A DNA stretch of 64,000 nucleotides from Macrostomum lignano (lineage: Eukaryota), in the NCBI GenBank assembly GCA_002269645.1, contig NIVC01003968.1, positions 3,291 to 67,290 of the forward strand, given 5' to 3'. A program made the translations under genes and the position numbers. The notes under the pieces are model-generated. The model was not told where the DNA came from. It saw nothing but the letters and a program-made list of their open reading frames with translations, and did not search any database. This document shows, piece by piece, positions 10,955-64,000 of this stretch; position 1 is the stretch's first letter; every line of letters starts with the position of its first letter.

Positions 10955-11343
10955 GCTATTGGAGAAGTCAGTTTGTCTAAGTTAGAAATTTGCAAGTCTC
11001 GCCAGAAGCTTTCGGTCCACGCTCCCGACTTTATTTGATACAAGCCAAGGGTTTTCTCTCCCTCATCCGCTTTTTCTACTTTACAAAGCTGTTGTGCGTT
11101 GCTAGGAGCAACAATGTCAACTTAACGCAGCGAGTTTTTGATAAAAAAACTAAGCAGAGCTTGCGTCTCACATCCGGGCTGCTATTCGTAGAAGTCACGA
11201 CTTTGTGTTCCGGCTTTTTTATGCACAAACTGAAGCATCCCATTGACGGGTTTGTAGGACCAAAAAGTTCCGTTTTACCCATCACGCGGAGAATTTTTTA
11301 AATAAAATATACCTAAATAGAAGTGAACCAATTTACTATTCGT

Positions 11344-12000: not shown

Positions 12001-13038
12001 GCAAATGCATAATTATGATGCTAATACGAGCTGTTTTTATCGATTGATGTCAAGAACTGGCAAGTAGTTGCGCTAATAGCGTCGCTGTTGCTTGTGCTCA
12101 AAAACAGACTATGCAGCATTAAATTCAGAGAAAAAGCTACCCTGCCTTATTAGCTGCCGATTGATAAACCCGTACCTGTGCCATCGTTGACCTATTGAAA
12201 ACTATGTACAGGTAAAAGAGCGGCTAGTATTCGTTAAATGACTTTTTGTTTCTTTGACAGCAAAGAAGCGAAGCAGTACATACCAAACTTATTCATGCAA
12301 CTGAAGCAAGCAGGTCGCTTCTGCAAGCATTCGAGTCATTGAAACAGATGACCCGAGACCGAAATTATTAGACTTGTCTCAGGGGGACTACAGAGGTTTC
12401 TTACAACTTTTCTTACTACAAGGTTTCTTAAAGACAAACAACATACGTTGCGTTGGAAGAATTGCGTCGAATCGAAGAGGGACTACGTCGAGAAGTGTGA
12501 CAACTTTGAAGACTCTGATTCACTGTGTTTGCTAGGGCAAAAAGTCTCAGAACTTTCGGAACGCCCCTCGTGCAAGAACTTGGTTCAATTCGCCACAGAA
12601 AATTCTATATGCGGTTGAAAAGTGTTTTACCAATAGGAATAAAATACCAAGTAAGTGTCAATATTCAAATTGAGAGTAATCTGTAAACGAGTGTAGAGTA
12701 GTACACTGAAAATAAGTTTACAAAACTGGAGTTGCGCAATTAGCTAAAAAATAACTTAACAAAGACAATCATTCGATAGCTAGTCAACACTTTTGATGGA
12801 CCTCATTCAGATGAAAATTAAGTAGTTTTGGCAACAGAGCAGAATGTGAACAGAATTGAATAAAAAACGAAAAAAAGATTTTAGCAGCGGCTAGAGACAT
12901 TTCAAAACGAATTTTCATGTTGTGAATAATTTTGTTTTTAAGAAGGGTTTTTCCAAAAAATATCATGTTTAAGTAAAACAGATTAGGTGCTATTATTTTA
13001 GGGGAGGCAATTTTATTTTATGATTTAATTATTAACAT

Positions 13039-14503
<1,465 letters not shown>

Positions 14504-14545
14504 CTAATTCCGTTTCAGCATTACTGTCGCTCCGAATCCACTTCA

Positions 14546-15331
14546 TCACGTCGTTTTGTGCAGATACTTCGTCCAGTGCAAATTCTCCGTTTCGTTGGCA
14601 GAAAAGTCTGATCCGTCGAGCGGTAGGCTGGCGTCAAAGTGAGGCAGCAGGACGCACTGCCTCCTTGTCGGATGCCAGTAGAATCCGACGCAGTCGTTAA
14701 AATCGAACTGAAAGCAAGTCAAGGTGCAATCAGCGAGAGTCTTGGCAGCCGGCACCTTGATCCAGCAACCAGGGTCAAGTTGATGGCGCACGGCGATTTC
14801 CACTCGCACGAATTTTCCGCTGTCCAGTTTTGTCGTCAACCGATCGGCCGCAGCACTGTCCGAGTAGCAGTACACAAAGTGGGTCGCTGAGCATGAATCA
14901 TCTCTCAGCTGTCCGTTTGTGCTGGAATATGTCGTTACGCAGTCCTGGTTGTAGGCATTATTTGGCTCGTTTGTCTCAAAGTAGTTTTCGGTTCCCGTCG
15001 TTACGTCGCCATCCTTGATCCATATCCAACCAGCTTTGCTCTTGTCTCTCTCATCGAGCGCGTCGACCAATCCGACCCACCACTGCTCGGGTGGAATGTT
15101 GCCGGCTGACTTCATGTCGTCATACACCGTCTTGCTGATCATCTCCTGGCCGTTGGAGTGGCACACTTTAACCGCCTCGCAGAAAGTCCTTCTGACATCG
15201 GTGTACTTCTTGACGCACCACGGCTTCGAAGTGTGGCCAACCTGGGTCATGTCAGGTGGACAAGACGACGCAGTAAGCATCACCAGCTGAGCAGCCAGCA
15301 GAGGAATCGAGAGATAAGCTACAAAGCTCAT
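14546..15331 (-). CDS. Secreted C-type lectin + PAN-like domain, intronless (copy 2, 261 aa)
   Basis: The protein is identical to copy 1 over the first ~183 aa and divergent in the C-terminal domain. Confidence 0.9.
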   Translation of the reverse strand: MSFVAYLSIPLLAAQLVMLTASSCPPDMTQVGHTSKPWCVKKYTDVRRTFCEAVKVCHSNGQEMISKTVYDDMKSAGNIPPEQWWVGLVDALDERDKSKAGWIWIKDGDVTTGTENYFETNEPNNAYNQDCVTTYSSTNGQLRDDSCSATHFVYCYSDSAAADRLTTKLDSGKFVRVEIAVRHQLDPGCWIKVPAAKTLADCTLTCFQFDFNDCVGFYWHPTRRQCVLLPHFDASLPLDGSDFSANETENLHWTKYLHKTT

Positions 15332-17879
15332 GCTATTGGAGAAGTCAGTTTGTCTAAGTTAGAAATTTGCAAGTCTCGCCAGAAGCTTTCGGTCCACGCT
15401 CCCGACTTTATTTGATACAAGCCAAGGGTTTTCTCTCCCGCATCCGCTTTTTCTACTTTACAAAGCTGTTGGGCGTTGCTAGGAGTAACAATGTCAATTT
15501 AACGCAGCGAGTTTTTTATGATGAAGTTGCGACTTTGTCTTCCGGTTTATCTTACGAGACTTCACCTCCAGTTTACAGGATGCATGGTAGGAAACCCGTT
15601 GATTTTTTATTTAGCCTCACCTGTACGCATGTTTTGTTGTTGAGTGGTCCAAGCTTCGTTTAGGAAGAGCGACAGAACAATTTTCTATGAGAAGAATAGC
15701 AAACACTAAAGATATTTTTACAGATGTCGTTTTTATTGACGCATAATTTTAATGGATTTTAAGTTTTGTTGCATTTTTTCTGATATCCAGATGACATGAC
15801 ATATGAATTATAGACATGGTAGACATGCCTCTTGGCCAGTGAGATCTCTCTCCAGATTCTAAATGCATTAGTACTCCTTGGACATGCGGGGAGTAGCTTG
15901 CGAAAGGAACTAAGCTGATTTCTCTGCCTACCTTGACGGATCATGCCCGCCCCTAATCCGCGCACACAAAGCCAGAGAAAAAGCATCCGTGAAGCAGTGG
16001 CAATAAAACCCAGTATTTCCTTTCCATTGTTTCAGCAGCTGCTATTGTTGCCTTCACAACTGCGACACAGAGGCCGCGAAAAACAATGCAATTTTAGCAA
16101 AGTTTTCGGAAACTATAGAAGATTTTTTTAAATGCAAAAACTAGCTCTTGCAATTTTAAAGCAGGGGTGCGAAAACCAGTGGCTAGAAGCCTACAAAACT
16201 AATTAGAATGAGTCCTGTGGATCGGTCTATGCGGTTGCTGCCCGATGACTAAGCTCGATCTTTGGCCACATACGAGTATATTATAAAGTAGCAAGTCCAT
16301 GAAAGCCACCACATAAGCGTCTACTGCATTATCATCTCCTTAGTGTTTTCCTAACTGGTATTTGTTGCCTCTTTCTAGCGCAGAATTTTGCTTGAGTGGA
16401 TGAACGGTTTAGCAAACTATATGTTTGTTTAAAAAGCCTTCATGAAAAGACCCTACTAAAACTGTTTGGCTAGTCTTTTAGGAATGTAATTTTTCCTCTT
16501 TGAAAAATTCTGCCAAATTTTACGAACTAGAGAAAGGAATCATTTCAGCCTTTGCTGAAATGCTTTGCTTTGCGTTCGCTCCCCGGAAAATGATAGCTAG
16601 AAGTGATCTTTGTTTAATTTTTTGTCTTACTTTTGTCTTCGGAGAAATTCCTCTATCGATTTTTCCGAGAAACCTATGCGCTTCTATAAGCAAGGCAAGC
16701 TAGATAGCCCTGCTATAGCAGGAAATACTGATGATGACAATGGGCTGGGTTTTCTTGCGCAAAGTTTGAAAATCTTCAAAACAAAAGAGAAGCGAGGAAG
16801 TTCCACAAACTTGGTAGAGGTTGGAAAACATAAAAAGCAAAAATATCAGCTGACTCTTTTGTTAAAAACATCGAACTCAAATTTTGGGAGTCTTGAGACT
16901 GGCTCTAAACCATGCAGGGACCATTAGAAAACTGTAGCTACCTGGACTAGAAACAACCTCCACGAATACACGCGTTACTAACAGAGACTTTACGAAACTC
17001 AAGATTTTAATTCATTCCCGCCTTAGCATCTTTTTTAGTGTCCAATGAAAACAGGGCAAAGAAGTTGAATTTCTTGAGTTTTAAAATACGAGTAGCCATG
17101 GGAGCGTAAAACGTGATTACCAAGGTAAAAACTGGATAAGATTTTGCGAAAGTCTTATTAATAATCTCATTTTAATCTTCTACTCGTAACCAGGGACTGT
17201 CCTAAAAAGCAGCCAAATTTTGTGCAATAAACATTTTCACTTGATTTGTATTCAAAATACTGGTAAGTATGGGACTACGTGGACTTGATAATACTGCTCA
17301 CAGAGCTGTTACATACAGACTCAGCTTGTCTCCAACTCACTAAAGAAGAGCAAAGTTCTTAGTGCTCACACCTGCACTACGTGTTTGTACAAGCACAAAC
17401 AGCGCTGACTGGTACTTGGAAATTTATATCTACTAATGTAAGAGCTTTGGACACCTGATTATTTTTATCTCGTGTGCAGCGCAAGTTCGGTTGCATAAGC
17501 AAGGCAAAATTAGCTCGTAGACAAGTCACATTGATTGCTTTTTTGAGATGCTGGGAACAGAATTTTTTGTTAATCTGGGTAGCGGAAATCTTTCCATATA
17601 TTTTGTCGAGTTGATTCGAGTATTATTAGTTTTTAGAAAGGATAAAGCGGATATAATAAATATAAGCACTACAAATACGGAATAAATTTAGATTTAAAGT
17701 AAGGTGTAAGGTTGATATTGATAGAGAGCTTAACTGTAAGATAATAACATTTTTACTAAAAAGGGCTTTAACAGAAGTTCGTAAAAATGGTGAAGCTTAT
17801 ATTGAAACTTTAGAAACTCTAAAAGTGAGTTAAGTGTTTGTTATTAATTTTAAGTTTTCATATCCTCTTCTCTGTCGGT

Positions 17880-18652
17880 TCAAAACTCTGTGCGACGGTA
17901 CTTCGTCCACTGCATCTGCTCCGTTTCGTTGGCAGAAAAGTCGGAGATGTCAAGCGGCAGGCTGGCGTCAAAGTACGGCAGCAGGACGCACTGCCTCCTT
18001 GTCGGGTGCCAGTAGAAGCCGACGCAGTCACCGAACTCGAACTCAAGACAAGCCATGGTGCACTCGAGGCGGCTCATTCTGATCGACTGGTTCTTCCAAC
18101 AGCCCGGGTCGGGTTGCACGCGTTCCTTAATCTCCACGAGATGGAATTCTCCGTTGTCCGGCCTTTTAGCTGCTCGGTTTGCCGCAGTGGCGTCCTGGTA
18201 GCAGTAGAATGGATAAGCTTCAGAGCATGTCTCGTCCCTCAGCATTTTTTTCGATCCGGTAGTTGTCATGCAGTCTTGGAGGCTCTTATCATTAGGTTCT
18301 CCATCAAAGTAGTCCTCGGTGCCATCCGTTACTTGGCCATCCTTAATCCACACCCAGCGGTCTTTGTGCCTATACCTCTCTCGTTAAGCGCATCGACCAA
18401 TCCAACCCACCATTCTCTGCCAGGAATGCTATTGCTGATCTTCATGGCGTCGAACACAGGCTTGCTGACCATCTCCTGACCGTTTTCGTGGCAGGTTTTT
18501 ACCGCGTCGCAGAATGACTTTTGTAGACTGTACTCCTTAACGCACCAGGGCTGCTCAGGGGTTCCAACCTCAGTCATGTCGGAGGGGCAAGCCGACTCAG
18601 TGACATGAGCGGCCAGCAGTGGCAACAGAAGCAAAGCTATGGGACTAAACAT
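17880..18652 (-). CDS. C-type lectin + PAN-like domain (copy 3), with a 1-nt frameshift near 18360 (error or pseudogene)
   Basis: MFSPIALLLLPLLAAH...WWVGLVDALNERG continues in another frame as WVWIKDG...EPNDKSLQDC...CVGFYWHPTRRQCVLLPYFDASLP. One inserted base restores a full-length paralog. Confidence 0.8.
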
Positions 18653-19616: not shown

Positions 19617-21296
19617 TCAAGCCAAGATTGTGGCATTGAAACTTGGCTGCATCGACGAGGCGTCGATGACAATCGCAGACGCATTGCCATGGTGACCGCT
19701 TTCGTCAGGCACCTGCGGGGGAACCAGCAGGCGTAGCGTCAGGGACGCCGCTAACAGAGTCACCAGGCCGAACAGCACGGGCAGCTTTGAGCGGACCGCG
19801 TTGCGCTGCTTTGCGCCATTAGTTGACGCGCTTAGAAGATAAGAGGACGCCGCCTTGGCCGTGTTCTCCTGGCTCCCGGTCGGCTCCGATGGCTCGGGCT
19901 CCGGCAGGAGAGGTCGCCGCTCGCTAATCAGCTCCATGTCGGTCTCCATCTCGGCGTTGAAGTGGGCGGTCGTGGCTCGACCTCGCCAGTCGAGGCGTAG
20001 CGCGCAGATGGCCAGCAGGATGAAGAATGAGACAGATGAAGTGGCGAAGCCGACCCAGAGACCGTTGAGTTCCCAGCCAGCGGCGAAGGCGAGAGAAATT
20101 CCTAATGGAGCGCCGATCACATAGTAGCCGATGAGGTTCATGAGCATCGTGTGCAGATGGCAGTTGCACGCTCTCAGGGCGGCTATGCTGGGATAGGCAG
20201 CTAGTTGAAAGGCCGTATAGATTGACAGGTATGGCGACATTGCCACATACAGCTCTGAGGCTTCGGGTTCCATAGAGAAGATCCGAGGCACCTCGTAGCG
20301 CAGTAGGAAGAAGATTATTCCAATCACGGCGCCTACGGCGCTCATGAAAGCGAGGCTAGTAAGCACTAGCCGGGCCGCTTTTTCGGGCTGCTGGGTGCTC
20401 AAGTAGTAGCCGATGCGAGAGATGAGGGCGCTTCCGATGCCTACCGGGATGAGGAAAGCGATGACGTTGAGCTGAAACAGCACTGACTCGGCCGCGATCT
20501 CCGCTTTACCGATTAGTCCGGCCAGGAAGTTGCCGTACTCTGTGCCAAAGATCCAGAGAGTCTGGGTGAGCAGGCAGGGCATCACAGTGAGCAAAAACTT
20601 GCCCCAGTCCATGAAGGCGCGAGTGGACCAGCCCGACCAAGTGTCGCGGTGGATGTTCAGACCCCAGATAAAGGCGGTCTGCAGTATTGGAAGCAAGCAG
20701 AGACTAATTGAGAGGCCGAGAGCCGAGCCTGTAAGTCCCAGACCGGCTACTGTCACCAGTAAATACTGCAGCAGAGTGTTGACCCCGAGGCAGACGCCCC
20801 GAACGACGAATGTAGGCCAGAGGTAGCCGACCGCATCAGTGTAGGCAACGAGAGCGTCATTCAGGTTCATGGCCAAGCTGCCAGGCATTAAGATGATGAG
20901 AAAACGCTCGGCTTTGACTGAAATAACCGGGTCTTGGCCCAACAGGATAAGCAGGTTACCCGCGTTCATGACTAACGTCCAGTTAAAGCAGGTCAGCAGC
21001 ACGGAGGTCAACAGTCCGCGCTGTACAAAGTTGCCAACACGATGCTTCTTGCTACCGCCGATGGTCTGCGCTAGAAATGGCATGAGGCCCCAGCGCACCG
21101 AGGAAGCGCAATTCTCCACCGTCAGCTGCTGGATGGACAGCGCTAGGCCGGCCGCGTCCAGATCCTCCGTGCCTAAAACGCCGCAAAAGGCGAGCGTGAC
21201 TGGCATCATCATAGAGTAGAACAGCTGAGTGGCAGACATCGGCATGCCGCGCCGCATGATCCAGGCCAACTCGCGGGCGCTCTCGACGACTGTCAT
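19617..21296 (-). CDS. SLC47A: MATE (SLC47-like) multidrug efflux transporter, intronless, copy 1 (559 aa from ATG 21296)
   Basis: Multi-TM protein with QTIGG...VGNFVQRG, LGQDPVIS, TWSGWS...DWGKFL, IGYYVIGAPLG and GLWVG motifs plus an extra C-terminal TM. The ORF-track GTG start at 21377 lies near the TATA box, so the ATG is preferred. Confidence 0.9.
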   Translation of the reverse strand: MTVVESARELAWIMRRGMPMSATQLFYSMMMPVTLAFCGVLGTEDLDAAGLALSIQQLTVENCASSVRWGLMPFLAQTIGGSKKHRVGNFVQRGLLTSVLLTCFNWTLVMNAGNLLILLGQDPVISVKAERFLIILMPGSLAMNLNDALVAYTDAVGYLWPTFVVRGVCLGVNTLLQYLLVTVAGLGLTGSALGLSISLCLLPILQTAFIWGLNIHRDTWSGWSTRAFMDWGKFLLTVMPCLLTQTLWIFGTEYGNFLAGLIGKAEIAAESVLFQLNVIAFLIPVGIGSALISRIGYYLSTQQPEKAARLVLTSLAFMSAVGAVIGIIFFLLRYEVPRIFSMEPEASELYVAMSPYLSIYTAFQLAAYPSIAALRACNCHLHTMLMNLIGYYVIGAPLGISLAFAAGWELNGLWVGFATSSVSFFILLAICALRLDWRGRATTAHFNAEMETDMELISERRPLLPEPEPSEPTGSQENTAKAASSYLLSASTNGAKQRNAVRSKLPVLFGLVTLLAASLTLRLLVPPQVPDESGHHGNASAIVIDASSMQPSFNATILA

Positions 21297-21396
21297 GTCT
21301 GCAGACTGAAGCTGATTGCTGGTTGCTGATTTTACGCCCGATACGCAAACTAAGCGAATGAATATTGTTACTTTCACTTGCCTAATGCAATTGGCC

Positions 21397-21404
21397 TATT
21401 TATA
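21397..21404 (-). promoter_or_regulatory. Putative TATA box of MATE copy 1
   Basis: TATAAATA on the minus strand about 100 nt upstream of the ATG; conserved in copy 2 at 23697-23704. Confidence 0.5.
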
Positions 21405-21916
21405 AACTAGTTTTTCCAGACCAGTTTCGCTAAACTGCCTTGTATCCCATGGAAACGAGTTTGATCTCACTTTATCACAACTGCTTTTCTGGTAGCTACA
21501 ATTAGATAACGTAACTGATTTTACCGTTTTCCAACCCCTAAGGTGCTGGCACTTTTCTAAAAATAAATAACACGTGAAAATATCAAATAAACGTCTGGAT
21601 TTCTGCTTTTGGCTATTTTGTTATGGAGACATGGCGATGGTACATTTAATCAGATGATTGTACGCTCAACCGATGCGATGGTGCATCATATTTATCCACC
21701 ACAGAATGCCAAGAGATTCGCATCCTTGATTTCTCACGCAGATTTCTGAAGACGGAGTCAATTAAAAACTTCATTTTAACGCAATAAAAAAGCGAAGCAT
21801 GGGCTAATAAAAACATTCGAAGCAAGTACAAAAAAATTGCATCAAACATTGAAAGTAAGCGAGAAGTGCATAATTTCAGAAAAATATATCCGTCAAAGTA
21901 TTCTCAAATAAAGGAT

Positions 21917-23596
21917 TCAAGCCAAGACTGTGGCATTGAAACTTGGCTGCATCGACGAGGCGTCGATGACAATCGCAGACGCGTTCCCATGGTGACCGCT
22001 TTCGCCAGGCACCCGCGGCGGCACAAGCAGGCGTAGCGTCAGGGACGCCGCTAGCACAGTCACAAGGCCGAATAGCACGGGCAGCTTGGAGCGGACCGCG
22101 TTGCGCTGCTTTGCGCCATTAGTTGACGCGCTCAGAAGATAAGAGGACGCCACCTTGGCCGTGTTCTCCTGGCTCCCGGTCGGCTCCGATGGCTCGGGCT
22201 CCGGTAGAAGAGGTCGCCGCTCGCTAATCAGCTCCATGTCGGTCTCCATCTCGGCGTTGAAGTGGGCGGCAGTGGCTCGACCTCGCCAGTCGAGGCGTAG
22301 CGCGCAGATGGCCAGCAGGATGAAGAATGAGACAGATGAAGTGGCGAAGCCGACCCAGAGGCCGTTGAGTCCCCAGCCGGCGGCGAAGGCGAGAGAAATT
22401 CCCAATGGAGCGCCGATAACATAGTAGCCGATGACGTTCATGAGCAACGTGTGCAGATGGCTGTTGCACGCTCTTAATGCGGCTATGCTGGGATAGGCAG
22501 CTAGTTGAAAGGCCGTATAGATTGACAGGTATGGAGACATTGCCACATACAGCTCTGTGGCTTCGGGTTCCAGAGAGAAGATCCGAGGCACCTCATAGCG
22601 CAGTAGGAAGAAGATTATTCCAATCACGGCGCCCATAGTGCCCATAAAGGCCAGGCTAGTAAGCACTAGCCGGACCAATTTTTCGGGCTGCTGGGTGCTC
22701 AAATAGTAGCCGATGCGAGAGATGAGGGCGCTTCCGATGCCTACCGGGATGAGGAAAGCGATGACGTTGAGCTGGAACAGCACTGACTCGGCCGCGATCT
22801 CCGCTTTGCCTATCAGTCCGGCCAGAAAGTTGCCGTACTCTGTGCCTAAGTACCACAGAGACTGGGTGAGCAGGCAGGGCATCACGGTGTACAAAAACTT
22901 GCCCCAGTCCATGAAGGCGCGAGTGGACCAGCCCGACCAAGTGTCGCGGTGGATGTTCAGACCCCAGATAAAGGCGGTCTGGAGTATTGGAAGCAAGCAG
23001 AGACTAATTGAGAGGCCAAGAGCCGAGCCTGTAAGTCCCAAACCGGCTACTGTCACCAGTAAATACTGCAGCAGAGTGTTGGCGCCGAGGGAGACGCACC
23101 GAACGACAAATGTAGGCCAGAGGTAGCCGACCGCATCAGTGTAGGCGTTGAGAGCGTCGTACAGGTTCATGGACAAGCTGCCGGGCATTAGGATTATGAG
23201 AAAACGCTCGGCTTTGACTGAAATAACCGGGTCTTGGCCCAACAGGATAAGCAGGTTACCCGCGTTCATGACTAACGTCCAGTTAAAGCAGGTCAGCAGC
23301 ACAGAGGTCAACAGTCCGCGCTGTACAAAGTTGCCAACACGATGCTTCTTGCTACCGCCGATGGTCTGCGCTAGAAATGGCATGAGGCCCCAGCGCACCG
23401 AGGAAGCGCAATTCTCCACCGTCAGCTGAAAGATGGACAGCGATAGTCCGGCCGCGTCTAGATCCTCCGTGCCTAACGCACCGCAAAAGGCGAGCGTGAC
23501 TGGCATCATCATGCAGTAGAACAGCTGAGTGGCAGACATCGGCATGCCGCGCCGCATGATCCAGGCCAACTCGCGGGCGCTCTCGACGACTGTCAT
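21917..23596 (-). CDS. SLC47A: MATE (SLC47-like) transporter, intronless, copy 2 (559 aa)
   Basis: Near-identical tandem paralog of 19617-21296. Confidence 0.9.
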   Translation of the reverse strand: MTVVESARELAWIMRRGMPMSATQLFYCMMMPVTLAFCGALGTEDLDAAGLSLSIFQLTVENCASSVRWGLMPFLAQTIGGSKKHRVGNFVQRGLLTSVLLTCFNWTLVMNAGNLLILLGQDPVISVKAERFLIILMPGSLSMNLYDALNAYTDAVGYLWPTFVVRCVSLGANTLLQYLLVTVAGLGLTGSALGLSISLCLLPILQTAFIWGLNIHRDTWSGWSTRAFMDWGKFLYTVMPCLLTQSLWYLGTEYGNFLAGLIGKAEIAAESVLFQLNVIAFLIPVGIGSALISRIGYYLSTQQPEKLVRLVLTSLAFMGTMGAVIGIIFFLLRYEVPRIFSLEPEATELYVAMSPYLSIYTAFQLAAYPSIAALRACNSHLHTLLMNVIGYYVIGAPLGISLAFAAGWGLNGLWVGFATSSVSFFILLAICALRLDWRGRATAAHFNAEMETDMELISERRPLLPEPEPSEPTGSQENTAKVASSYLLSASTNGAKQRNAVRSKLPVLFGLVTVLAASLTLRLLVPPRVPGESGHHGNASAIVIDASSMQPSFNATVLA

Positions 23597-24859
23597 GTCT
23601 GCAGGCTGAAGCTGATTGCTGATTGCTGATTTTATGCTCGATATACGTATTAAACGAATGAATATTGTTGCTTTCACTTGCGCGGTGCAGCTGGCGTATT
23701 TATAAACTAGTTTTTCCAGACCAGTTTCGCCTAACTGCCTGGTATCCCGTAGAAACGAGTTTGTTCACGCTTTCTCGCAACTAGTTTTCTAAAATTAGTC
23801 CTTTACGACGATAATTTTGGAATTAAAGTTAAACCGGAAATTGGGAGGGGAGAATGTAGCAGCCAGTTTGAGGCACTCAGGCAGCTTCACTAGTGAGAGT
23901 CTCTGCATCGGCAGACGAGAGTAGCCCACACGTTTGCTAGTAGGTCAAAGGTAGAAAGTTTCACGTGTTTCGTTATCAGTTCATGCAACTGTCGCAACTG
24001 CACGCTATGAGGGTGTGGGAACACTGGCGTGAGCAGACAGGCCTGAAGAGTTTGCATCGAATGCTCGTGCGTCTGGAGTGGATTGCACACCAGTTTTTGC
24101 CAGTTTAGAACCAGTTTTCTATCTGATTAGCAAAAAGTTATTTCAAGTGCAAGCAGGGGTCATATAAAGTGACCTACTATTTTGTCGTAGGTAGTGACAA
24201 GAATTTAATGGAGCCACTATCTTATTGACTCGTAATATGCATGTACTTTCTTTATTTAACAAACGAAGTCAATGTTGACCTTCTCAACAATTCGCATCAT
24301 CATATAGCCGTTCAGTACCAGGAAGTCTTTTCATTCCAGAGCATTTGAAAACCGCAGTAACCGCAGGCGAATTCCGCATATGAGGGGTGAACAAAAATTT
24401 TCTGGATTTGAACAGATAGTTAATGGGCTACTGACAATCAATGTACAAGAAGAGTTGGACAACGCTCAGAGAGAGCACTCGCCATTTGTGGTAGGCACTG
24501 GTTGGGATACCCCACACCAGTGACTGTGACCTGCTGCACAAGTAACACCATGGCTGAATGGCCGGCTTAGTCGCAAAATTGCTTCCATTTGCTCAGCGAC
24601 ACAAAGGTGGGGTGCTTCCTATTGGAATCCCCTAGGGCCGACTGCTACGTTGTCTCTAGGTCAAATTTGTAGATCCAGGACTCATCGCCACTGAAGATTT
24701 CCCAGAACGAGTGGGAATGACCGAGTATGTTGCGGCACGACGTCACTAAGGCCTGTTTTTACTCCTTGGTACTTGATCCTTTGCTCTTTGATGAGGTATC
24801 CGGCGGGCCGAAATCTTTCTGAGATGAAGCTTCGTTGAGAATCGTTGGGATGTAAATCT

Positions 24860-35979: not shown

Positions 35980-36123
35980 TTAAACCCACACTACTCTCCT
36001 AAATTCCAAAGCTTGCCAACATTGCCATCGATTTTGTCCAGTTTTTCTAACTAGTGATGAGATTTTGTGGGATTTTTTGCTGGCGTTGTGAATTCGAACC
36101 AGCCTTTGGCGTTGAACACGGAG

Positions 36124-37280
36124 CACCCCAACTGCCAGCCGACAACTGCCAGCCGGAAAACTGCCAGCCGACAACTGCCAGTCGACAACTGCCAGCCGAC
36201 AACTGCCAGCCGACAACTGCCAGTCGACAATTGCCAGTCGACAATTGCCAGCCGAGAAAACTTCCAGCCGGAAAACTGCCAGCCGACAACTGCCAGCGAG
36301 AAATCTGCCAGCCAACAACTGCCAGCCGACAAGTACTAGCTAATTGAATCTACTGTAGCCTACTTATTAGCTAAGTAAAAAGCACGAAACTGTTTGGCTA
36401 GCAAAAGGCTTGTGGGGTAGCCTTACATGTCGCCCTTCCCTTTCCTAATTTTTTCAGATTTCCATTAGAAGTATATATGTGAAGGAGAAGGCATTCTGTA
36501 ATGCCTATTGTAAATATTTCTGTATTGATTACATTATTATTTAATTTGCGATTGCTATATGACGCAATCCTAGATAAGTCTATTAAATTACTTTACTTAA
36601 ATAAAGCTTTCAAAGAAAGAGCAAAGGCTACATAAATTCGAAATTTGAATGCCTTCTCCTTCACATATATACATGTACTTCTAATGGAAATCTGAAAAAA
36701 TTAGGAAAGGGAAGGGCGACATTTAAGGCTACCCCACAAGCCTTTTGCTAGCCAAACAGTTTCGTGCTTTTTACTTAGCTAATAAGTAGGCTACAGTAGA
36801 TTCAATTAGCTAGAACTTGTCGGCTGGCAGTTGTTGGCTGGCAGATTTCTCGGCTGGCAGTTGTCGGCAGGCAGTTTTCCGGCTGGCAGTTTTCTCGGCT
36901 GGCAATTGTCGGCTGGCAGTTGTTGGCTGGCAGTTTTCCGGCTGGAAGTTTTCTCGGCTGGCAATTGTCGGCTGGCAATTGTCGACTGGCAGTTTTCCGG
37001 CTGGCAGTTTTCTCGGCTGGCAATTGTCGGCTGGCAGTTGTTGGCTGGCAGTTTTCCGGCTGGAAGTTTTCTCGGCTGGCAGTTGTCGGCAGGCAGTTTT
37101 CCGGCTGGCAGTTTTCTCGGCTGGCAATTGTCGACTGGCAATTGTCGACTGGCAGTTGTCGGCTGGCAGTTTTCCGGCTGGCAGTTTTCTCGGCTAGCAA
37201 TTGTCGGCTGGCAATTGTCGACTGGCAGTTTTCCGGCTGGCAGTTGTCGGCTGGCAGTTTTCCGGCTGGCAGTTGGGGTG
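36124..37280. mobile_element. Foldback-like non-autonomous element with modular terminal inverted repeats
   Basis: Outer arrays of CAACTGCCAGCCGA-like units at 36124-36335 and their reverse complement at 36814-37280. Unique inner arms 36336-36496 and 36647-36813 are reverse complements, with a 150-bp spacer. Confidence 0.8.
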
Positions 37281-55105: not shown

Positions 55106-55592
55106 ACATGGCCTGGTAATGGCTAGAGTTCCGGCACCAGAACCCATTTTCTAACAGCTAGGGATCCAGCAGTGCCATATAGAAGCATATAAAGACTACT
55201 AAGAACATATCCATGCTTGGGCGCAACCTAGGGATTCACCCGGCCGTTTCTATTGGCAACACACACACGTAAGTCGCTATTGGACAGAATAGTAGTCACG
55301 TGACTGCTCTCAGCCAATAGCGACTTACATGTGTGTGTTGCCAATAGAAACGGCCGGGTGATTCCAAGGTTGCGCATGTATGAACATATCTTAAGAAGTC
55401 TGAATATTAGAAGCATCTCATCCTAAATCTTATCATATCGTCTTAAATTTTAATCTAGAACAAAATCTCAATATCAGCCACCTGTAGAAAGAAAAATATA
55501 ATGTTCCATCTATATTATAATGGCACTGCCGGATCCGTAGCTGTTAGAAAATGGGTTCCGGTGCCGGAACTCTAGCCATTGCCACATGGCCT
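55106..55592. mobile_element. Mutator-like MITE (~64-bp TIRs, 9-bp TSD) containing a nested palindromic MITE with its own 9-bp direct repeat
   Basis: TIRs at 55115-55178 and 55520-55583; TSD ACATGGCCT at 55106-55114 and 55584-55592. Inner palindrome 55221-55375 is flanked by GAACATATC at 55203-55211 and 55382-55390. Confidence 0.8.
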
Positions 55593-55745
55593 AGCTTTTA
55601 TTGTAGCTTGACCTATAGATGTTTATCCACTAAATAAACTTAATAAAGCAAGTAGCTAAGCACAAAATAAATACCTTGTTGCATATTTATTTCATTTTTG
55701 CATAGCATAAATATTAGCAATGATTTCTCAATAAACTGATGGTAA

Positions 55746-56513
55746 TGTACTAGTGCTATGCCTTTATCATAGTATACTCGAATGTTCTTTCAATGTAATA
55801 ACTGTATATTCGAATCTTTCTTAGAAACTGAATCTACGCGAACGCCAAATAATAGTTTGTTTTAATGCGCGAAATAAATTGGAGAATTATTTTTTTGTTT
55901 TAATCGTATGTGGGGAAAATCACTATATATAGGAGCGGTTTTGCGACAAATATACTCCAACTGTCTTTTACCCGTGAGCAAATAATTGCGAACAGAATAA
56001 GCAGTTCAATCTAAACCATTTCAAAGTCTTTGAGCTAAATAGCGACTTATTTATTTGCAAAACCTGTGAAACGATTCTAAGAAATTTGCTAAGAGAAGGG
56101 AATTGGGACTAATTCTTGGAGATATACCAAGAGAGGCGCCGTGACCCTCTAGTCTTGGTGAACGCCCGATTAGGACTATACACTAATACATATACCAGTA
56201 CTAGACCGCTCAGGCCATAAGCTACTAGAACGCTACCAGAAAGCAAGCCATAAGCTACCAGAAACGCTACTAAGAACGCTACCAGAAACGCTACTAAGAA
56301 CGCTACCCAGAAATATTTAAATGAAATTCTAAGAAATAGTTAGGGAGTAAAAGCAAGTATAATCAGGATAACTGTAGTTGGCAAATCGGTGGGATTAAAA
56401 TTAATAAAGTAAGAGGTGAAAGGCCTGTAACAACTTTGGTGGCAGCTCGTAGGATATTTAATAAACACTAATAGTTAGAAGTTTAGAAAGACAGAGCCAA
56501 AAGGCCTGTCACA
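55746..56513 (+). repeat. 5' LTR (end at TGTCACA 56513 inferred from the PBS; 56432 is an alternative)
   Basis: Matches 63641-64000; TG...CA ends; internal AGAAACGCTAC(C/T) repeats at about 56225-56310. Confidence 0.75.
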
Positions 56514-56515
56514 GC

Positions 56516-56534
56516 TGGTGGCAGCGGTGGGATT
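56516..56534 (+). promoter_or_regulatory. Primer binding site complementary to the tRNA-Leu (AAG/TAG type) 3' end
   Basis: TGGTGGCAGCGGTGGGATT is the reverse complement of AATCCCACCGCTGCCACCA. Confidence 0.85.
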
Positions 56535-56613
56535 AGAGAAACGGCGCGAACTCTCAAAACTAGATTCAGAAGAATTCCGAAGAATAATTTGAAAAGTTTT
56601 TCGTAGAGAAAAG

Positions 56614-57594
56614 ATGAATCAGAATCAGGCTAATGACGCCATCGCCATGCTGGCAGAAGAATTGCGAAACCGACTAGAGATAGGGCCGATGAGACACGTT
56701 AAGATTCAGAAATTCACACCTACGCAAGACATTCGGATCTGGCTAACAGCCTTCGATCAGCGCTGTGAAGTAGAAGGGATAGATGAGGAACATAGGAAGC
56801 AGGAATTGCTAGCTAATCTGGACCTGTCCACTGCATTCGCAGCGGTACAGCGCCTAAATCTGCCCGAGGATCTTGAATACGAAGAGTTCAAAGAGCGACT
56901 GATTGAGCGATTCGGAAGAATCGGTAGTTCCGCAGAATTCAGAGAGGAGTTTCGTGGAAGAATGCAAGGCAGAAATGAGCCTGTAGAGACTTTCGCAGAC
57001 TGTTTGATCGAGCTGGCATCGCGTGCATTTCCGAATATGACTGTTGAGCAGAGGGAAGAAGAAATTGTTGAGCAATTCATCAAGGGAATCAGAATTCCGT
57101 CAGAGACCCGTGAGAAGCTAATCTTTGCGCAGCCAGGCAATTTACAAGAGGCTAGAAGAATGCTAAGAAGGATGGAGGCTGCGTGGAACATGTCTCACAA
57201 GAATGTCAACATGAGAATGGCCAAAGGCGAAGGCGAGAGTGAGCAGAAGGCAGATCAGGAGAAGCTTGAGGACATCATCAAGAAGCAGAGAGCAGAGCTA
57301 GAGCAACAGAAGAAGGCGATTGAAGAGCTGATGGAAGAGAAGAGAGCTAGCCGTCAGCAGTATCATCCGCAGAATCAATATCAAACGTACGCTCAGGTCG
57401 CTGGACCGCAGCAGCAGCAGCAGCAGCAGCCAGTATGGCGCGGTCAGCCTCAGTTCAACAGGCAGCCACAGCAACAGCAGCAACCTCGAGCCTGCTACAA
57501 TTGCGGAAAGCTTGGCCACATGGCGAGGAATTGCCAGAGCGCTAGGCCAAACGGTCAGCGAGTGGTGAACTACCAGAAGCAGCAGGGAAACTGA
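56614..57594 (+). CDS. gag: Gag: capsid-like domain, coiled coil and CCHC zinc knuckle (326 aa)
   Basis: CYNCGKLGHMARNC; FRGRMQGRNEPVETFADCLIELASRAFP is typical of gypsy Gag. Confidence 0.92.
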   Translation: MNQNQANDAIAMLAEELRNRLEIGPMRHVKIQKFTPTQDIRIWLTAFDQRCEVEGIDEEHRKQELLANLDLSTAFAAVQRLNLPEDLEYEEFKERLIERFGRIGSSAEFREEFRGRMQGRNEPVETFADCLIELASRAFPNMTVEQREEEIVEQFIKGIRIPSETREKLIFAQPGNLQEARRMLRRMEAAWNMSHKNVNMRMAKGEGESEQKADQEKLEDIIKKQRAELEQQKKAIEELMEEKRASRQQYHPQNQYQTYAQVAGPQQQQQQQPVWRGQPQFNRQPQQQQQPRACYNCGKLGHMARNCQSARPNGQRVVNYQKQQGN

Positions 57595-57628
57595 GTAGCG
57601 AGGGCCGCTTTGCGAGGCCACGTCCCTC
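57585..57628 (+). promoter_or_regulatory. -1 ribosomal frameshift signal (G GGA AAC + downstream stem-loop)
   Basis: The heptamer at 57585-57591 sits just before the gag stop and is followed by GAGGG-CCGC-TTT-GCGAGGCC-ACGT-CCCTC, which can fold into nested stems. Confidence 0.7.
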
Positions 57629-60600
57629 TAGCAACAATTATCGCGAATTCAGGCCTCTGAATTTGTAAATAATGCGTATCGAAGTAATGCCAGACAGTAT
57701 AGTAACAGCAGAACGCATGCCGAATTCAATAAATTTCACAGAAAACCAAATAAAAATTTTGCACCTCGTGTACATACGCCGCTTGCACCTAGTCATGCGT
57801 CTGCCAGCCACAGTAGGCCGAATAATAAAGTACAAAGTACAGTAATTCCGAATGAGCATTCGAAGAAAGAATTCGAAGAAGATACGGAGAGAAAAGGACG
57901 AGAAGCAGTCGTCAATGGAATGCTAAGAAACCGAAAGGTCTACTTCCTGCTAGACACAGGAGCTGGACATAATTTCCTAAGCAAGAGTACTTGGAAAAAA
58001 TGTTCAGAAGTGATGAAATTGAGTTGACTACTAGAAGAGTGACTACGTTTGACGGATCAAGTGTGCGAATTGAAGGAGAAGTCAGAACGAAAATACGATT
58101 CGGAGAGATAGAGATTGAGACAGAGTTCCTGCTGTGCAATCACGAGTGTGACGACATACTCGGGATGGAGTTCTTCATGAACTTCTGCGACAGCATCAGC
58201 CTTTCCAGAGGAATGCTTGTATTAAAAGAAGGGACCTGCATCCCAATTCAGTTTACAAAATTACCCGTACGGGTTTGCCGAATTACAGCCATAACAGCGT
58301 GACTATACCAGCGAATAGCGCTCTTCGAATTCCAATTAGAATGACTAAAGGATCAGAAGCTAACTATGGAACGCCAATGGTCATTGACACCATTGGAGGC
58401 CAAGTGACTACGAAGAGAAATTCCTTAGAGATGATTCCTACTCTAGTGACCATGAACGATGGAACAGGAGTAGTGGAAATAATCAATCGACAGAATGACG
58501 ATATCAGACTGACAAGATCTACGCTGATTGGAGTGGCCAAACCCTTGAAGCCAGGAGGCCTGGCCTACTCTATTAACAGCAAAGGTCAAGCCAGTTCAGA
58601 TGATGCAATTAGGACAGTGAAGAGTGAAGAGAGTGAGTACAGCTGGATAAACGAGATCGATTTAGGAGAAGAGCTAACATCAGAACAGAAAGGACTAGTG
58701 ATCGATTTGCTAAAGAAGAACAAGGAAGCATTTTCGCAGACCAACCAAGACATGGGTCTCACCCATCTTGTGACTCATGAAATATCTCTAAAAGATACCA
58801 CACCGGTCAGGATTCCAACACGCAGAATTCCACCACATCTGCAAAAGCAAGTAGATGAGCAACTTGACGACATGCTTGCTAAGAACCTGATCCGACCATG
58901 CTATAGTACTTATTCAACGCCGCTAGTGATAGTTCCTAAGAAGGATGGATCCATAAGAATCGTCAGTGACTTCAGGGTCCTGAACTCGAGAGTGAACTAT
59001 TACCCATATCCATTGCCGAACATACAAGAGACTTTCGCTCAGTTATCTGGAAGCAAGTACTTCAGTAGTCTAGATTTAAACTCTGGATACTGGCAGGTAC
59101 CTATCAAAGAAGAGCACAAATTTATGACAGCCTTTTCCACCCTTACCAGAGGCCAGTTCGAATATCAGGTCATGGCACAGGGCTTGTCTAACGCTCCTGG
59201 TACATTCCAGAGACTCATGAATTTGGTGCTGATGGGAATACAGCACAAATTCGCGATGTCGTACATAGATGATATTGTGACATACTCAGAGAAATTCGAA
59301 GATCATCTCGGTCATCTGCAAGAAGTATTTCAAAGACTAATCTCAGCAGGACTAAAATTAAGACCAAAAAAGTGCAACTTGTTTCAGAAAGAGCTAAAGT
59401 ACTTAGGGCATATCGTAGGAAGAGAAGGGATTAGAACAGACCCAGCTAAGATCGAAGCGATACAGTCATGGCCTACGCCGAAAGAGGTCAAAGAACTGCG
59501 AAGCTTCTTGGGGTTGTGTAACTACTACTGCAGATTTGTAAAGAATTACGCAGAGGCAGCGCATCCGCTATTTCAATTAACTAAGAAAGGTATTCAAAAC
59601 TTTAGGGAAAAGTGGACCAAGAAGCATGACGAGGCTTTCCAGCAGTTGAAGCAGAGAATGACATCGACCGAAGTACTCGCGTACCCAGAATTCTCAGAGA
59701 ACGAAAATGTTCGAATGGTGTTAGACACCGACGCAAGCGAAGACCGAATTGGTGCTTGCCTGGGTCAAATACAATCGGACGGGGTTGAAAGACCCATTGC
59801 TTACTTCAGCAGAGCAATGAAAGAGTCTGAGAAAAGATATCCGATTACCAGAAAAGAGCTATTAGCGCTAGTAGATGGCATGAAACACTTCCGATTTTAC
59901 CTAATTGGCAAAAGGTTTCTGGCTCGCACAGACCACAAGGCAATCCTATGGCTATTGCGCCAGACCGAAGCCCAAGGAATTCTCGGAAGGTGGATTGAAA
60001 GATTGAGTGAGTTTCAATACGATATTGAGCACCGCAGTGGAGCTAAACATTCCAATGCAGATGGATTGTCACGGCGACCCTCGGAATTACCAGTCGAGCA
60101 GAAAGATACTAAGATCAAAGAGAATGAGGCCGAAATTCCTAAGATGACAATAGAAACCAGCGCTGTGAAACAAGTCGTGACTAGCAGCGTGAAAGATCAG
60201 AGTTGCCAGACCGACTTCACAGAAGAGTATGAATCAGATTCCGAAGACGAATTCGCAGATGATGAATACGAAGATGCCAGTGATCAGTTCGAAGATGATG
60301 ATGACATCTATGAAGATGCAAGAGACTATTTCGAAGAGGAAGAGACAGTGTGCAGAAGCTTCTGACAGATTACCTCTCGGTTCCATTGAAGAAAGAGCAG
60401 CTGACTTCAGCGCAGCATGCTGATCCTTCTATAAGAACCTTGATGGACTGGAAGCAGAAGAAAGTACGTGAGCCGAAGTTACCAGAAAATGCATCCGGAG
60501 AGTTGAAGAAGATGGTTAAGCTACGAGCAGATGAAAATCGAAGATGAAATGCTGACAGTCAGTGAAGACGGTAAACGAAAAGTAGTATTGCCAGAGAAGA

Positions 60601-62083
60601 TTGAGAAAGATGTATTCAAAGAGCTGCACGACAGTCCGCTAGCAGGCCACCTAGGTCGGGACAAGACGCTACAGCGAGTCCGAGACCGATTCTGGAGGCC
60701 GGGGTTAGTGACTGCAGTTGAAAAGTACATCGCAGAATGCATCCCGTGTCTGGAAAGTAAAAGCGGAAATAAAGTACGAGCACCGGTGCAGACCTTTCCG
60801 ATATGTGAGCCATTCATCGGCTGCACATAGATTTGATCGGTCCGATATCAAAGGAAAGCAGAAGAGGACACCGATATGTACTTACTGTTGTAGATAGTAC
60901 AACGAAAGTTCCCATTCGCTTTTCCGGTTCGGAATCAGAAATCCGCTACTGTTATCAAAACGATACAAGAGAGAATTTTCAGCGAGTATGGCCAGTGCAA
61001 TGGATACACACTGATAATGGCAAGACTTTTGTAAGTCACCAATTTCAGGCATTCTGTACCCTATACGGCATTAAGCATACTTGCACTACGCCTTACCATG
61101 CTCAGAGTAACGGGCTTGTCGAAAGATTTAACAAGCAAATTAAATCGATTGTAACCTGTTTGATTGAAAAGGATCATTCAGATTGGGATCTGCTCATACC
61201 CGCCGCTTTGGTAGCTGTGCGAACCAGTGTTAATCAAACTACTGGGTTCACACCACACTACTTACTATTCGGGAGAGAAGCAGATTTGCCAATAGATAGC
61301 ATTGTGAAAAGGCCAAGACTATACCGAGACTATCCTAGTTATGTGCTGGATCATGCGAAGAGAATCGAGGAGACAAAAGCAATTGTGCGAAGACAACTCG
61401 AAAAGGTGCGAGAGAAAAGGCAAGAGGACGAAGTTGAGAATCGTCAGCCTAAAAATGTGCCAGTTGGCTGTCTCGCTCTCATCAACAACCTCAACTTCAC
61501 CAAGAGGAGAGCCACAAGTTTCATCGAAAGAAGAGAGCAGCCTATCGAGTACTTGCGAAGATATCAGACACAGTGTTCCGTGTGCAAAGAGAAATCAATG
61601 GCGAAAGGAGCGGAGAAAAACTATTAGTACATAGAAATAATCTGACTCCAGTGCCGAAATCCGAAATTGATTTACCAGAGGAAATTAATAATAATTTAAA
61701 ACCAGCACCAGTGCAACTAAGAAGAAGAACCGAAGCCGAAGAAAAGAATTTGCCATAGACAAAAAGAAGTTAGAATTCCAGAAGTTCAAATTTTAGAGGA
61801 GGAAAGCTCAGACGAAGAAAACAGAATTCAATGGAGAGTATTCGCAGATCCGAATTCGCAGAGTGAAAACGAAGGAAATGAAGAATTGAACAGTGAGAAT
61901 ACAGAGAGAGCGACTGACTCAGATGAGCCATCAGAAGAAGAAGAAGGAGCATTAGAGTTAGAGGAGGAACGAGTTCAGCCAGAGAATAGGTATAACTTTA
62001 GGATGACTCAGCGAAGGAGAGAAAGAGAAGGCGCGACAGGATTTGTGCCCCGAAGGCGCTACGCGAAATATTTAGCACCTTAA
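57585..62083 (+). CDS. pol: Pol polyprotein (PR-RT-RNase H-IN), broken by roughly ten small indels in this assembly
   Basis: LLDTGA (about 57947), LDLNSGYWQV, SYIDDIV, LDTDAS, ARTDHKA, HDSPLAGHLG...CIPC (HHCC), VVDSTTK, IHTDNG and SNGLVERFN (DDE). Confidence 0.9.
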
Positions 62084-62332
62084 ATCATGACGTAAGCAAT
62101 TTCCCATAAGAAACAGTGTTAAATAGTTAAAATTCCGTATTAGAATTACTTATCTGCTTATAAAATTTGACATGCTGTACATAGAGCGAATCTGTAAATA
62201 CCATATTAATCTACAAAATGCGATCTTTAATTTGATACTTTACTCAAGAAAATCTATCAAAAAATAAAAAAGTTATAAAAAGAAATAGAAAATCCATAAA
62301 AATTTAGTTGTCAAATCTGTCAAATCTGGCAT

Positions 62333-62399
62333 GCCCCGCCCCACGCGCGAGGGAGTGCTTCGAAGAGGTCCAGTTTTTCGGCCCGCCAGCCTATAAATA
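62333..62399 (+). promoter_or_regulatory. Putative internal Pol II promoter for ORF3 (GC box + TATA)
   Basis: GCCCCGCCCC at 62333-62342 and TATAAATA at 62392-62399, about 80 nt upstream of ATG 62481. Confidence 0.55.
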
Positions 62400-62480
62400 C
62401 GAGCACCGCAGGCCCCACAGATCCCATAGCTCACTGCTAGCTTCCTTTCTATTCTAAGAGCCATTCGCAGAGAAATCAAA

Positions 62481-63355
62481 ATGAACAACTCTATTGATAT
62501 CTTGGACGAGTTAATTGGCAATCTGTCAGACGATATGGAGCCCCAGCCAGCGCCAACACCGACGAAAATGAGGCACCGCTTCGATGTGCAACACGTCCAA
62601 AGGCGCCTGGTGTATCCAGCAAACGGCCAAGAACATCATCGCCAGCTTCATCGCCTTGCCGCCAAATGAGGGTCGAAGGCCCCGAGCAGAAGCGCGCCGC
62701 CCTGGTGGCAGCACAGGCAGCTGCGCCCGTGCGCTCCTATGTTGTCAAGGCCACGCCAGGATCGTCGACATCAAGCCGAACGCAGCAGTTGGTGTCACCG
62801 CCAGCTGCCCCATCATCGAGAAAGACCCCGGCACCACGGCAGAAGAAATCGACAGCTGCGACACCGCCAGCTCAGCAGCCAGCGTCGCAGCCGAGCCTGC
62901 AATCAGCGCAGCAGTCAGCGCTGCAGCCGAGCCTGCAATCAGCGCAGCAGTCTAGCCAGCCATCAGCACTACAGCCGAGCCAGCAGCAATCGAATTCGCA
63001 GAGAGATTTTCATCGCATCGTCCGAGAACTTGTGGAGACTCGCGGAGCAGAGGTGGAAAAGCTACGCTTCCACATTGAGCAATACGCACTGAAAGTAGCG
63101 TACCACCGATCCGACAGCCGACAGCGCTACCCCCAATGCTCGCAAATTTGGACACACCTGAAGTTTCTGAGGGATCAATTCAGTTACCAGGAAGCTGTCG
63201 CTGTTCTCCAGGACGTCGCCTATCGCCTCCAGCGAGCTATAAGAGCCAACCCGCCGCCAGCGCTGACGGTCCTCGACGAAGAGTACCGATGGTTTTTCGC
63301 TCAAGTCGGCTGGCCCTACTATCGCGACCTCCCGGAGCCCTGCATGTTTATCTGA
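62481..63355 (+). CDS. ORF3 of unknown function (~290 aa if a 1-nt indel near 62540 is corrected; 229 aa from ATG 62666)
   Basis: The frame of 62666-63355 stays open upstream to about 62500. It has an S/P/A/Q-rich N-terminal half with SKRPR and a complex, helical-looking C-terminal ~95 aa, with no signal peptide or TM segment. Confidence 0.7.
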
Positions 63356-63627
63356 ACTATTGAGGTGAACTAACTTTTGCGTTGCCTTTAATAACAATTT
63401 TGCCTTTTATAATACTTTTATAATAGTTCGTTTTGCTTCCATAATAGTTCTCACTTTAATGGTTTACCTACATAATAGTTCTATCACAACCATTTTATGC
63501 ACCAATTGTTTTAGCACTGAATTGTGTTTTCTGCACCTTGCTTTGCACCTTTTCACCTGCATTTTCCTACGATATCAATTTTTCACTGTATACATATAAT
63601 ATAGTATTTCGTTCAAATTTGATATAT

Positions 63628-63640
63628 AGAGGAGGAAAGT
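63628..63640 (+). promoter_or_regulatory. Polypurine tract
   Basis: AGAGGAGGAAAG(T) directly before the 3' LTR TG. Confidence 0.85.
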
Positions 63641-64000
63641 TGTACTAGTGCTATGCCTTTATCATAGTATACTCGAATGTTCTTTCAATGTAATAACTGT
63701 ATATTCGAATCTTTCTTAGAAACTGAATCTACGCGAACGCCAAATAATAGTTTGTTTTAATGCGCGAAATAAATTGGAGAATTATTTTTTTGTTTTAATC
63801 GTATGTGGGGAAAATCACTATATATAGGAGCGGTTTTGCGACAAATATACTCCAACTGTCTTTTACTCGTGAGCAAATAATTGCGAACAGAATAAGCAGT
63901 TCAATCTAAACCATTTCAAAGTCTTTGAGCTAAATAGCGACTTATTTATTTGCAAAACCTGTGAAACGATTCTAAGAAATTTGCTAAGAGAAGGGAATTG
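63641..64000 (+). repeat. 3' LTR (partial)
   Basis: Matches 55746-56105 except for one C/T difference seen. Confidence 0.95.

Follow-up and report, generated by a model that had tools for sequence, protein, structure and literature searches.

VANC of the plant VANDAL DNA transposons is an element-encoded, element-specific anti-silencing protein that binds specific sequences, silencing marks being lost on its own element. Non-env accessory genes are known from plant gypsy elements and a few animal ones. The Grande gene23 (maize; PMC7264820) and Retand TRP28 ORFs are described as having their own promoter and a nuclear product of unknown function (PMC7264820; PMC11963269). Foamy-virus Tas is described as a nuclear, acidic-class protein made from an internal promoter (PMC517496), and sORF2/FAST-like proteins as short, with a TM domain and an MG myristoylation motif (PMC11952523). 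CERV is reported to be nuclear and to carry candidate NLS and NES (PMC10309623), and is the sole case with a demonstrated nuclear function among the accessory genes compared here, as far as the available parts of their descriptions extend. According to one such source, the ORF3s of LTR elements are typically expressed via spliced messages (PMC5408684).

In Macrostomum lignano, the window (the whole stretch of 64,000 nt that was analysed) contains a Ty3/gypsy LTR retrotransposon of Macrostomum, which spans position 55746 to beyond 64000 on the plus strand. It displays two LTRs with a TGT start, PBS-like and PPT sites, and gag followed by PR-RT-RH-INT. Self-BLAST and offset comparison, together with the PBS context in the first case, place the 5' LTR at 55746..56513, with an uncertain 3' end (candidates near 56432 or 56513), and the 3' LTR at 63641..64000. 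Because the latter leaves the window, the comparison of the pair is limited to its first 360 nt, without a TSD or full LTR end, and over these 359 of 360 positions are identical. The element is a recent insertion. A motif scan identified a TATA-like box of the LTR promoter at 55924..55931, and three PBS-like repeats (56379, 56437, and 56516) occupy 56379..56534, the third of which (56516) resembles a full tRNA-Leu PBS. Similar AAAGGCCTGT..ACA stretches stand before the second and the third, as though the LTR end had been duplicated together with the PBS, and 12-nt tandem repeats occur within the 5' LTR region at 56211-56313. The U3 also carries at 55867 and 63762 the sequence GCGCGAAA, presumably an E2F-like site, which would fit expression in dividing cells. 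MITE-like nested inverted repeats (55114-55584; outer arms 65 nt, inner 52 nt) lie ~160 nt upstream of the 5' LTR.

The gag gene (56614..57594) is open and codes for 326 aa with a CCHC knuckle. Its product is 94% identical to the M. lignano UniRef entry A0A1I8IYI7, with one substitution outside the Q-rich tract, and the search returned four matches among 1319 candidates, the other relatives being at 70, 48, and 38% identity. A slippery-type heptamer, G GGA AAC, at 57585-57594 just before the gag stop may point to programmed gag-pol frameshifting. The pol region (PR-RT-RH-INT, 57632..62083) is spread over seven ORFs, each 80 aa or longer, whose frames vary; five of them contain Pfam pol domains, in the gypsy order zf-CCHC, aspartyl protease (below cut-off), RVT_1, RT_RNaseH, Integrase_H2C2, rve, and Integrase_p58_C. 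It includes two long, very acidic stretches, one between RH and INT (60200-60360) and one at the C-terminus (61800-61990). An AT-rich spacer (62084..62300) leads to the promoter-like region of a third gene, ORF3, which is followed by a U-rich, 3' untranslated-like region (63356..63627) with short direct repeats at 63382-63560, and by the PPT (63628..63639). The LTR-element RT clades Mag, CsRN1, Gmr1/Osvaldo, and Mdg3 have been described in M. lignano (PMC12801592). No heat-shock element was found in 55700-64000, so the element is unlike the HSE-bearing families in the available part of that study, and three short motifs of the window are absent from its supplementary file 5, a weak negative since long runs there are cut.

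Elsewhere in the window, all on the minus strand, are a duplicated, apparently intronless Vav-like gene (CH, RhoGEF; C1, SH2) at 1-863 and 5375-7293, the second copy lying in two frames, and, by eye, two MATE-like transporter ORFs in tandem and three ORFs resembling C-type lectins (19617-23764 and 10172-18383, respectively). A non-LTR RNase H-like fragment (13146-14503) sits between two lectin copies, and an array of 14-15 nt repeats (36116-37276) is arranged as a large inverted repeat.

As assembled, the copy is not autonomous: gag is open, but pol, which an autonomous copy would need open as well, is divided among its seven ORFs. The earlier note had taken the near-identical LTRs to imply an active element; their near-identity stands, while activity is unsupported because of this splitting of pol. 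The breaks that can be read in the element are frame switches, about ten in pol by eye, and those beyond the ORF count are by eye only, since the additional pieces lack Pfam or PDB support: neither had a relevant match for the PR-RT spacer or for pieces 60314-60544 and 60894-61031, which look coding by eye. Had the breaks arisen after insertion, the LTRs should differ more. The probability of at most one LTR substitution in 360 nt would be 0.05 to 0.0001 with 9-11 indels and 5-10 substitutions per indel, and 0.13-0.22 with 3 substitutions per indel, all these ratios being assumptions. The Vav-like host gene is likewise split across two frames, and the PacBio ML2 assembly is reported to contain fewer intact ORFs than Mlig_3_7 (PMC5730564). 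Assembly error, probably long-read indel error, appears to be the likeliest cause of the frameshifts; a defective copy moved in trans is a possible alternative.

Located between pol and the PPT on the gag-pol strand, the third gene is real, although in this copy it is broken and its parts occupy two frames. The ATG frame (62481..62669), which codes for an acidic amphipathic N-terminal helix, stops after 62 codons. A second, long frame (62498-63355) has 285 stop-free codons, a length reached in 0 of 3000 shuffles, and is not due to chance; its first ATG, at 62666 (229 aa), is downstream of KRPR. The change from one to the other takes place somewhere within about 62540-62565. Encoded in the long frame are a conserved N-terminal motif block (62567..62740) with EAPLR..TRP, KRPR at 62621-62632, and a second basic patch; a low-complexity S/P/A/Q linker (62741..63001), whose repeats, spaced by 36, 24, and 24 nt, preserve the reading frame; and a C-terminal domain of 117 aa with five predicted helices (63002..63355), conserved basic columns, an aromatic tail, and a stop at 63353-63355. 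A continuous ORF of ~290 aa starting at the ATG, as first proposed, is therefore not present here, the ATG frame ending at 62669 (62 aa) and two frames having been joined by the reader; the acidic N-terminus, KRPR, S/P/A/Q linker, and helical domain attributed to it all exist, but split over these two frames. The PBS decamer TGGTGGCAGC recurs inside ORF3 at 62703-62712, which may be chance.

A phmmer search of 1,835,955,588 proteins with the ORF3 domain as query gave five matches, four of which are genuine: P0005 (349 aa, 42% identity, a continuous ORF), P0006 (235 aa, 39% identity, a continuous ORF on a 5426-nt contig), P0007 (90 aa, 47% identity), and P0009 (118 aa, 31% identity), which is M. 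lignano BOX15_Mlig026206g2. The fifth, P0008 (E 1.6e-5), was dropped, since all it offered was four short stretches aligned with helical repeats in a 924-aa protein that is unrelated. A profile search returned two of 8000 candidates, P0009 and P0006. As Mlig_3_7 genes are described as deriving from transcriptome assembly (PMC5730564), P0009 is probably transcribed. Strong matches of the relatives to the window are confined to the long frame. The motif block (35/58 identities with P0005, 24/51 with P0006) is at least as well conserved as the domain (45/114 and 45/115), and the linker aligns poorly among members. KRPR is found in two of the three long members and KRP in all three, P0006 carrying KRPM instead; S/T-P sites are present in 3/3 long members, and P0009 lacks both the motif block and the aromatic tail. 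An acidic amphipathic helix upstream of the block occurs in two of the three long members, with a net charge of -6 in the ATG frame of this copy and -7 in P0005, a match that is not significant alone (p=0.36), and is absent from P0006 as predicted.

For the family as a whole the original gene model probably holds: in P0005 an acidic helix precedes the same motifs within a single uninterrupted ORF. Because P0005 and P0006 conserve the block that lies before Met 62666, coding must begin upstream of that codon, with 62481 (or 62535) as the likely start codon. Neither P0005 nor P0006 is interrupted at the position of the ORF3 break, and programmed frameshifting there was rejected on these grounds.

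No Pfam family scored above the curated cut-offs in any of the five ORF3 members. A word-based search with the domain matched 0 of 41 candidates, exact look-up matched 0 of 6 window proteins, and PDB searches gave no match (best E 1.2 by sequence, 0.75 by profile). PHROGs and NCBIfam had none for the window member and one weak single-member match each; the ESM Atlas had no feature match and a structure TM of at most 0.27 on a poor model. Among bacterial and archaeal genomes, where only close relatives would be detectable, 0 of 101 pattern matches were confirmed, and searches for Rfam families and tRNA genes gave 0 each. Mlig026206 is unmentioned in the full-text literature and paper supplements searched, and no description of ORF3 was found in open-access PMC and bioRxiv. 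Judging from sequence, ORF3 is a non-env third gene belonging to a small, unnamed protein family; its reading as a genuine, non-env gene holds up, since it has divergent relatives, its motifs are conserved, its domain is predicted to fold, and no Pfam family covers it.

With a five-sequence alignment, AlphaFold predicts five helices and an ordered tail for the domain (pLDDT 85, pTM 0.82), and AF2 on the single sequence reaches pLDDT 72. Basic residues are found in at least four of the five rows at columns 35, 40, 50, 58, 61, 82, and 100, and the net charge of the domain is +2 in this copy and 0 in P0006. The AlphaFold and Foldseek check that had been suggested for this domain succeeded in its first part, the prediction of five helices, but Foldseek at E<=0.001 found no match in the PDB (single-sequence model) or in BFVD (both models). 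The best VIA-align Z was 7.8, for 4heh_B (rmsd 2.4, 81 aligned) and 6b4g_A (rmsd 3.2, 113 aligned); with the better model 0 of 48161 chains reached Z>=8, and other VIA-align runs were similar. Such scores represent helical-bundle background, and indicate neither a match nor a new fold. Homodimer prediction, made without an alignment, scored 0.01 in two of two runs.

The best reading of ORF3, to which we give a probability of about 0.4, is a nuclear regulator that the element carries under selection and that increases expression of the element itself. ORF3 would be kept by selection as an accessory gene in a lineage of Macrostomum Ty3/gypsy elements, and open copies would express it from a short mRNA of its own, starting at the internal GC-box/TATA promoter and terminating in the 3' LTR, as a ~290-aa protein that is soluble and nuclear. 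Element DNA or nascent RNA would be bound by the basic five-helix domain, the motif block would provide for nuclear import and a docking site for host factors, and the acidic helix may recruit co-activators or displace silencing factors, raising LTR-driven transcription as foamy-virus Tas does. What the computations show is anatomy and conservation, namely where the gene sits in the element, the family of its protein, conserved motifs, a predicted fold, promoter-like motifs, and no membrane features; promoter use, nuclear location, nucleic-acid binding, and activation are inferred. In favour of a nuclear regulator are the KRP/KRPR motif, the acidic helix, the conserved basic columns of the domain, and the promoter pair, with Tas and maize Grande gene23 as precedents. 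Against an activator count the acidic helix match (p=0.36), a near-neutral domain, and the lack of word sharing beyond chance level between internal promoter and LTR U3 (no common 8-/9-mers, no excess of 6-/7-mers), as well as the 3'ORF of a fish retrovirus, long proposed to be a transactivator and reported dispensable when tested (PMC12193657).

Concerning expression, the GC box, TATA box, and ATG that the earlier note had placed between pol and the PPT are all found: the GC box CCCCGCCCC at 62334..62342 on the minus strand, the TATA box TATAAATA of a candidate internal promoter at 62392..62399 on the plus strand, from which a start would be expected near 62420-62430 by usual spacing, and the ATG at 62481. 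A GC box followed by a TATA box occurred in 0.6% of 20000 block shuffles, a test that, like that of the acceptor below, was chosen after the sequence was seen. Just upstream of the GC box, TGTCAAATC is present twice as a direct repeat (62309-62326), and TGTCA in this repeat region is presumably a TALE-homeodomain-type site.

A polypyrimidine tract with AG 62458 and CAG 62470 (62437..62470, plus strand) forms a candidate splice acceptor, and such an acceptor-like AG close to the ATG, no less conspicuous than the promoter motifs, makes env-type splicing a rival to the gene being self-promoted, as had been claimed. ORF3 might then be a Rev- or CERV-like export factor, translated from an env-type spliced or SL trans-spliced mRNA made via acceptor 62458 or 62470, which would enter the nucleus, bind unspliced genomic RNA through its basic domain, and license its export. 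AG 62458 lies 23 nt before the ATG and, with 16 pyrimidines in the 19 upstream positions, ranks first of the 744 AGs of the internal region, a rank inflated by the purine-rich gag-pol strand; 20000 local shuffles matched its pyrimidine score in 1.0% of cases, and 5000 shuffles of the spacer in 2.7%. As no GT occurs between the predicted internal start and AG 62458, this acceptor needs a far-upstream donor or trans-splicing. Donor-like GTAAG at 56409..56413 (plus strand), in the 5' LTR/leader, and GTGAG at 55974 could serve an export factor, but two such sites in 770 nt are at about chance level. PMC8629364 reports CAG for cis- and [T/C]TNCAG for trans-splicing as the acceptor motifs enriched in M. 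lignano, with GT[G/A]AG as the donor motif, whereas AG 62458 stands in an AAG context, and CAG 62470 only has rank 57 among the 744 and departs from the trans motif. The acidic helix could act as an export signal, and CERV provides a precedent in an invertebrate LTR element (PMC10309623); however, the TATA/GC pair would be left needing another explanation, and no RNA structure above shuffles was detected in either of the two flanks folded (3' region 63356..63627, z -0.29). We consider an export factor unlikely. For the expression of ORF3 itself, we give even odds to the internal promoter, regard splicing as a tentative second choice, and hold a combination of both to be unlikely.

Instead of acting on element nucleic acid, ORF3 might be a host-manipulating adaptor that binds the cell-cycle, apoptosis, or ubiquitin machinery via linear motifs and the helical domain, favouring the survival or proliferation of element-carrying neoblasts or germ cells. 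This would fit a disordered motif block more conserved than the domain (35/58 vs 45/114 to P0005), as in motif-mimic proteins, the S/T-P sites of all three long members, and what we take to be an E2F-like site in the LTR. Planarian Burro elements are moreover reported to carry BIR, BCL2, and MATH domains (PMC6431247). However, none of the five members has a Pfam family above curated cut-offs and no named docking motif was identified. We hold an adaptor to be improbable.

Both the preferred nuclear regulator and the readings just discussed can be set against the capture of a host gene restricted to the lineage, which would have brought along its promoter and 3' UTR and would ride as a passenger, in which case the relatives would be host genes and the present copy would be decaying. 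The cassette differs from pol in composition, GC3 being 0.62 in the domain and 0.35 in RT-RH, with two host genes at 0.57 and 0.72, but gag also has a GC3 of 0.56. Promoter, ORF, and U-rich tail do resemble a whole gene, yet the cassette has no introns, flanking duplication, or convincing terminal repeats, and shows no nested-insertion signature. P0009 is annotated as an M. lignano gene, although the Mlig_3_7 annotation, described as transcript-based, need not mean a host gene (PMC5730564). Similarly, the copy here is frameshifted, but pol shows breaks of just this kind. Only four relatives exist among 1.84 billion proteins, ORF3 being narrowly distributed, and Gag relatives are similarly sparse. 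An element-like pattern is also seen in the 31%-identical paralogue within M. lignano (Mlig026206g2), in the three of five members that are broken or short (this copy, P0007, and P0009), and in P0006, a 235-aa ORF on a 5426-nt contig. We regard the family as probably element-borne, and capture of a host gene as improbable.

Hydropathy and R-x-K/R-R scans confirm the absence of a signal peptide, TM anchor, and furin site claimed previously. No signal or TM segment was found, the Kyte-Doolittle mean over 19 residues peaking at 1.02 for the long frame and at -0.07 for the ATG frame; a hydrophobic segment was absent from six of six sequences (19-residue hydropathy maximum 1.02), and the furin site from the same number (0/6). 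An env-like or cell-to-cell transmission protein, which the env position between pol and PPT and an acceptor-like site as for env mRNA would suggest, is thus extremely improbable, the lack of a hydrophobic segment and furin site excluding the env and sORF2 types, and no N-terminal MG myristoylation motif being present in this copy or its four relatives, unlike sORF2 as described (PMC11952523).

ORF3 would act in the manner of foamy-virus Tas or Grande gene23 and occupies the site of the bdelloid non-env ORF3s, but carries none of the tested membership features specific to any of them. With foamy-virus Tas/Bel1, compared here by described anatomy, it shares an extra sense-strand gene 3' of pol, a second promoter (a candidate one here), a basic NLS-like motif, and an acidic segment, but the latter is N-terminal in ORF3 and C-terminal in Tas, and the element is a Ty3/gypsy retrotransposon without env (PMC517496). 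Like Grande gene23 and Retand TRP28, ORF3 is a non-env gene located between pol and the 3' LTR of a gypsy element; those genes are described as plant, antisense, and of the TRP28/PF04195 family, whereas ORF3 is animal, in the sense orientation of gag-pol, and of no Pfam family (PMC7264820; PMC11963269), PF04195 not being among the Pfam matches at E<=1 of the five members.

Among animal elements, CERV of C. elegans Cer1 is likewise a taxon-restricted, non-env accessory protein of an invertebrate LTR retrotransposon, but is described as having 517 aa, five exons partly in the gag frame, a Cys loop, and a G-like domain, while ORF3 is a separate 3' gene with one all-helical predicted domain (PMC10309623). 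The bdelloid rotifer ORF3s are also family-specific third ORFs in the env position of animal gypsy-like elements; they are reported to code for a GDSL esterase, a DEDDy exonuclease, or coiled-coil/TM proteins (PMC5408684), whereas ORF3 has no enzyme family and no TM segment, GDSL and DEDDy having no Pfam match and its model containing helices only. The TM and MG features of sORF2/FAST-like proteins were not found in the ORF3 sequences. Planarian Burro/GYPSM1 are flatworm gypsy elements with extra regulatory coding capacity too, but their domains are described as known host-like folds, mostly inside a giant polyprotein, and not as a small, separate 3' gene (PMC6431247). The parallel with VANC is one of idea, a protein by which an element would counter its own silencing, and VANC belongs to DNA transposons of plants.

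A sense-strand, possibly self-promoted gene of an unnamed family would add an animal case to the known accessory genes, and would open to testing the standing question of whether simple retrotransposons supply activators or silencing suppressors for themselves. M. lignano is reported to permit RNAi and promoter-reporter transgenesis, the latter already applied to LTR promoters (PMC12801592). By analogy with Tas, an independently evolved two-promoter switch, in which the product of the internal promoter, a nuclear protein of the unnamed helical family, would activate the element's LTR or relieve its silencing, is conceivable though doubtful. If true, it would represent an env-less retrotransposon with the regulatory logic of complex retroviruses, in a stem-cell-rich, RNAi-tractable flatworm.
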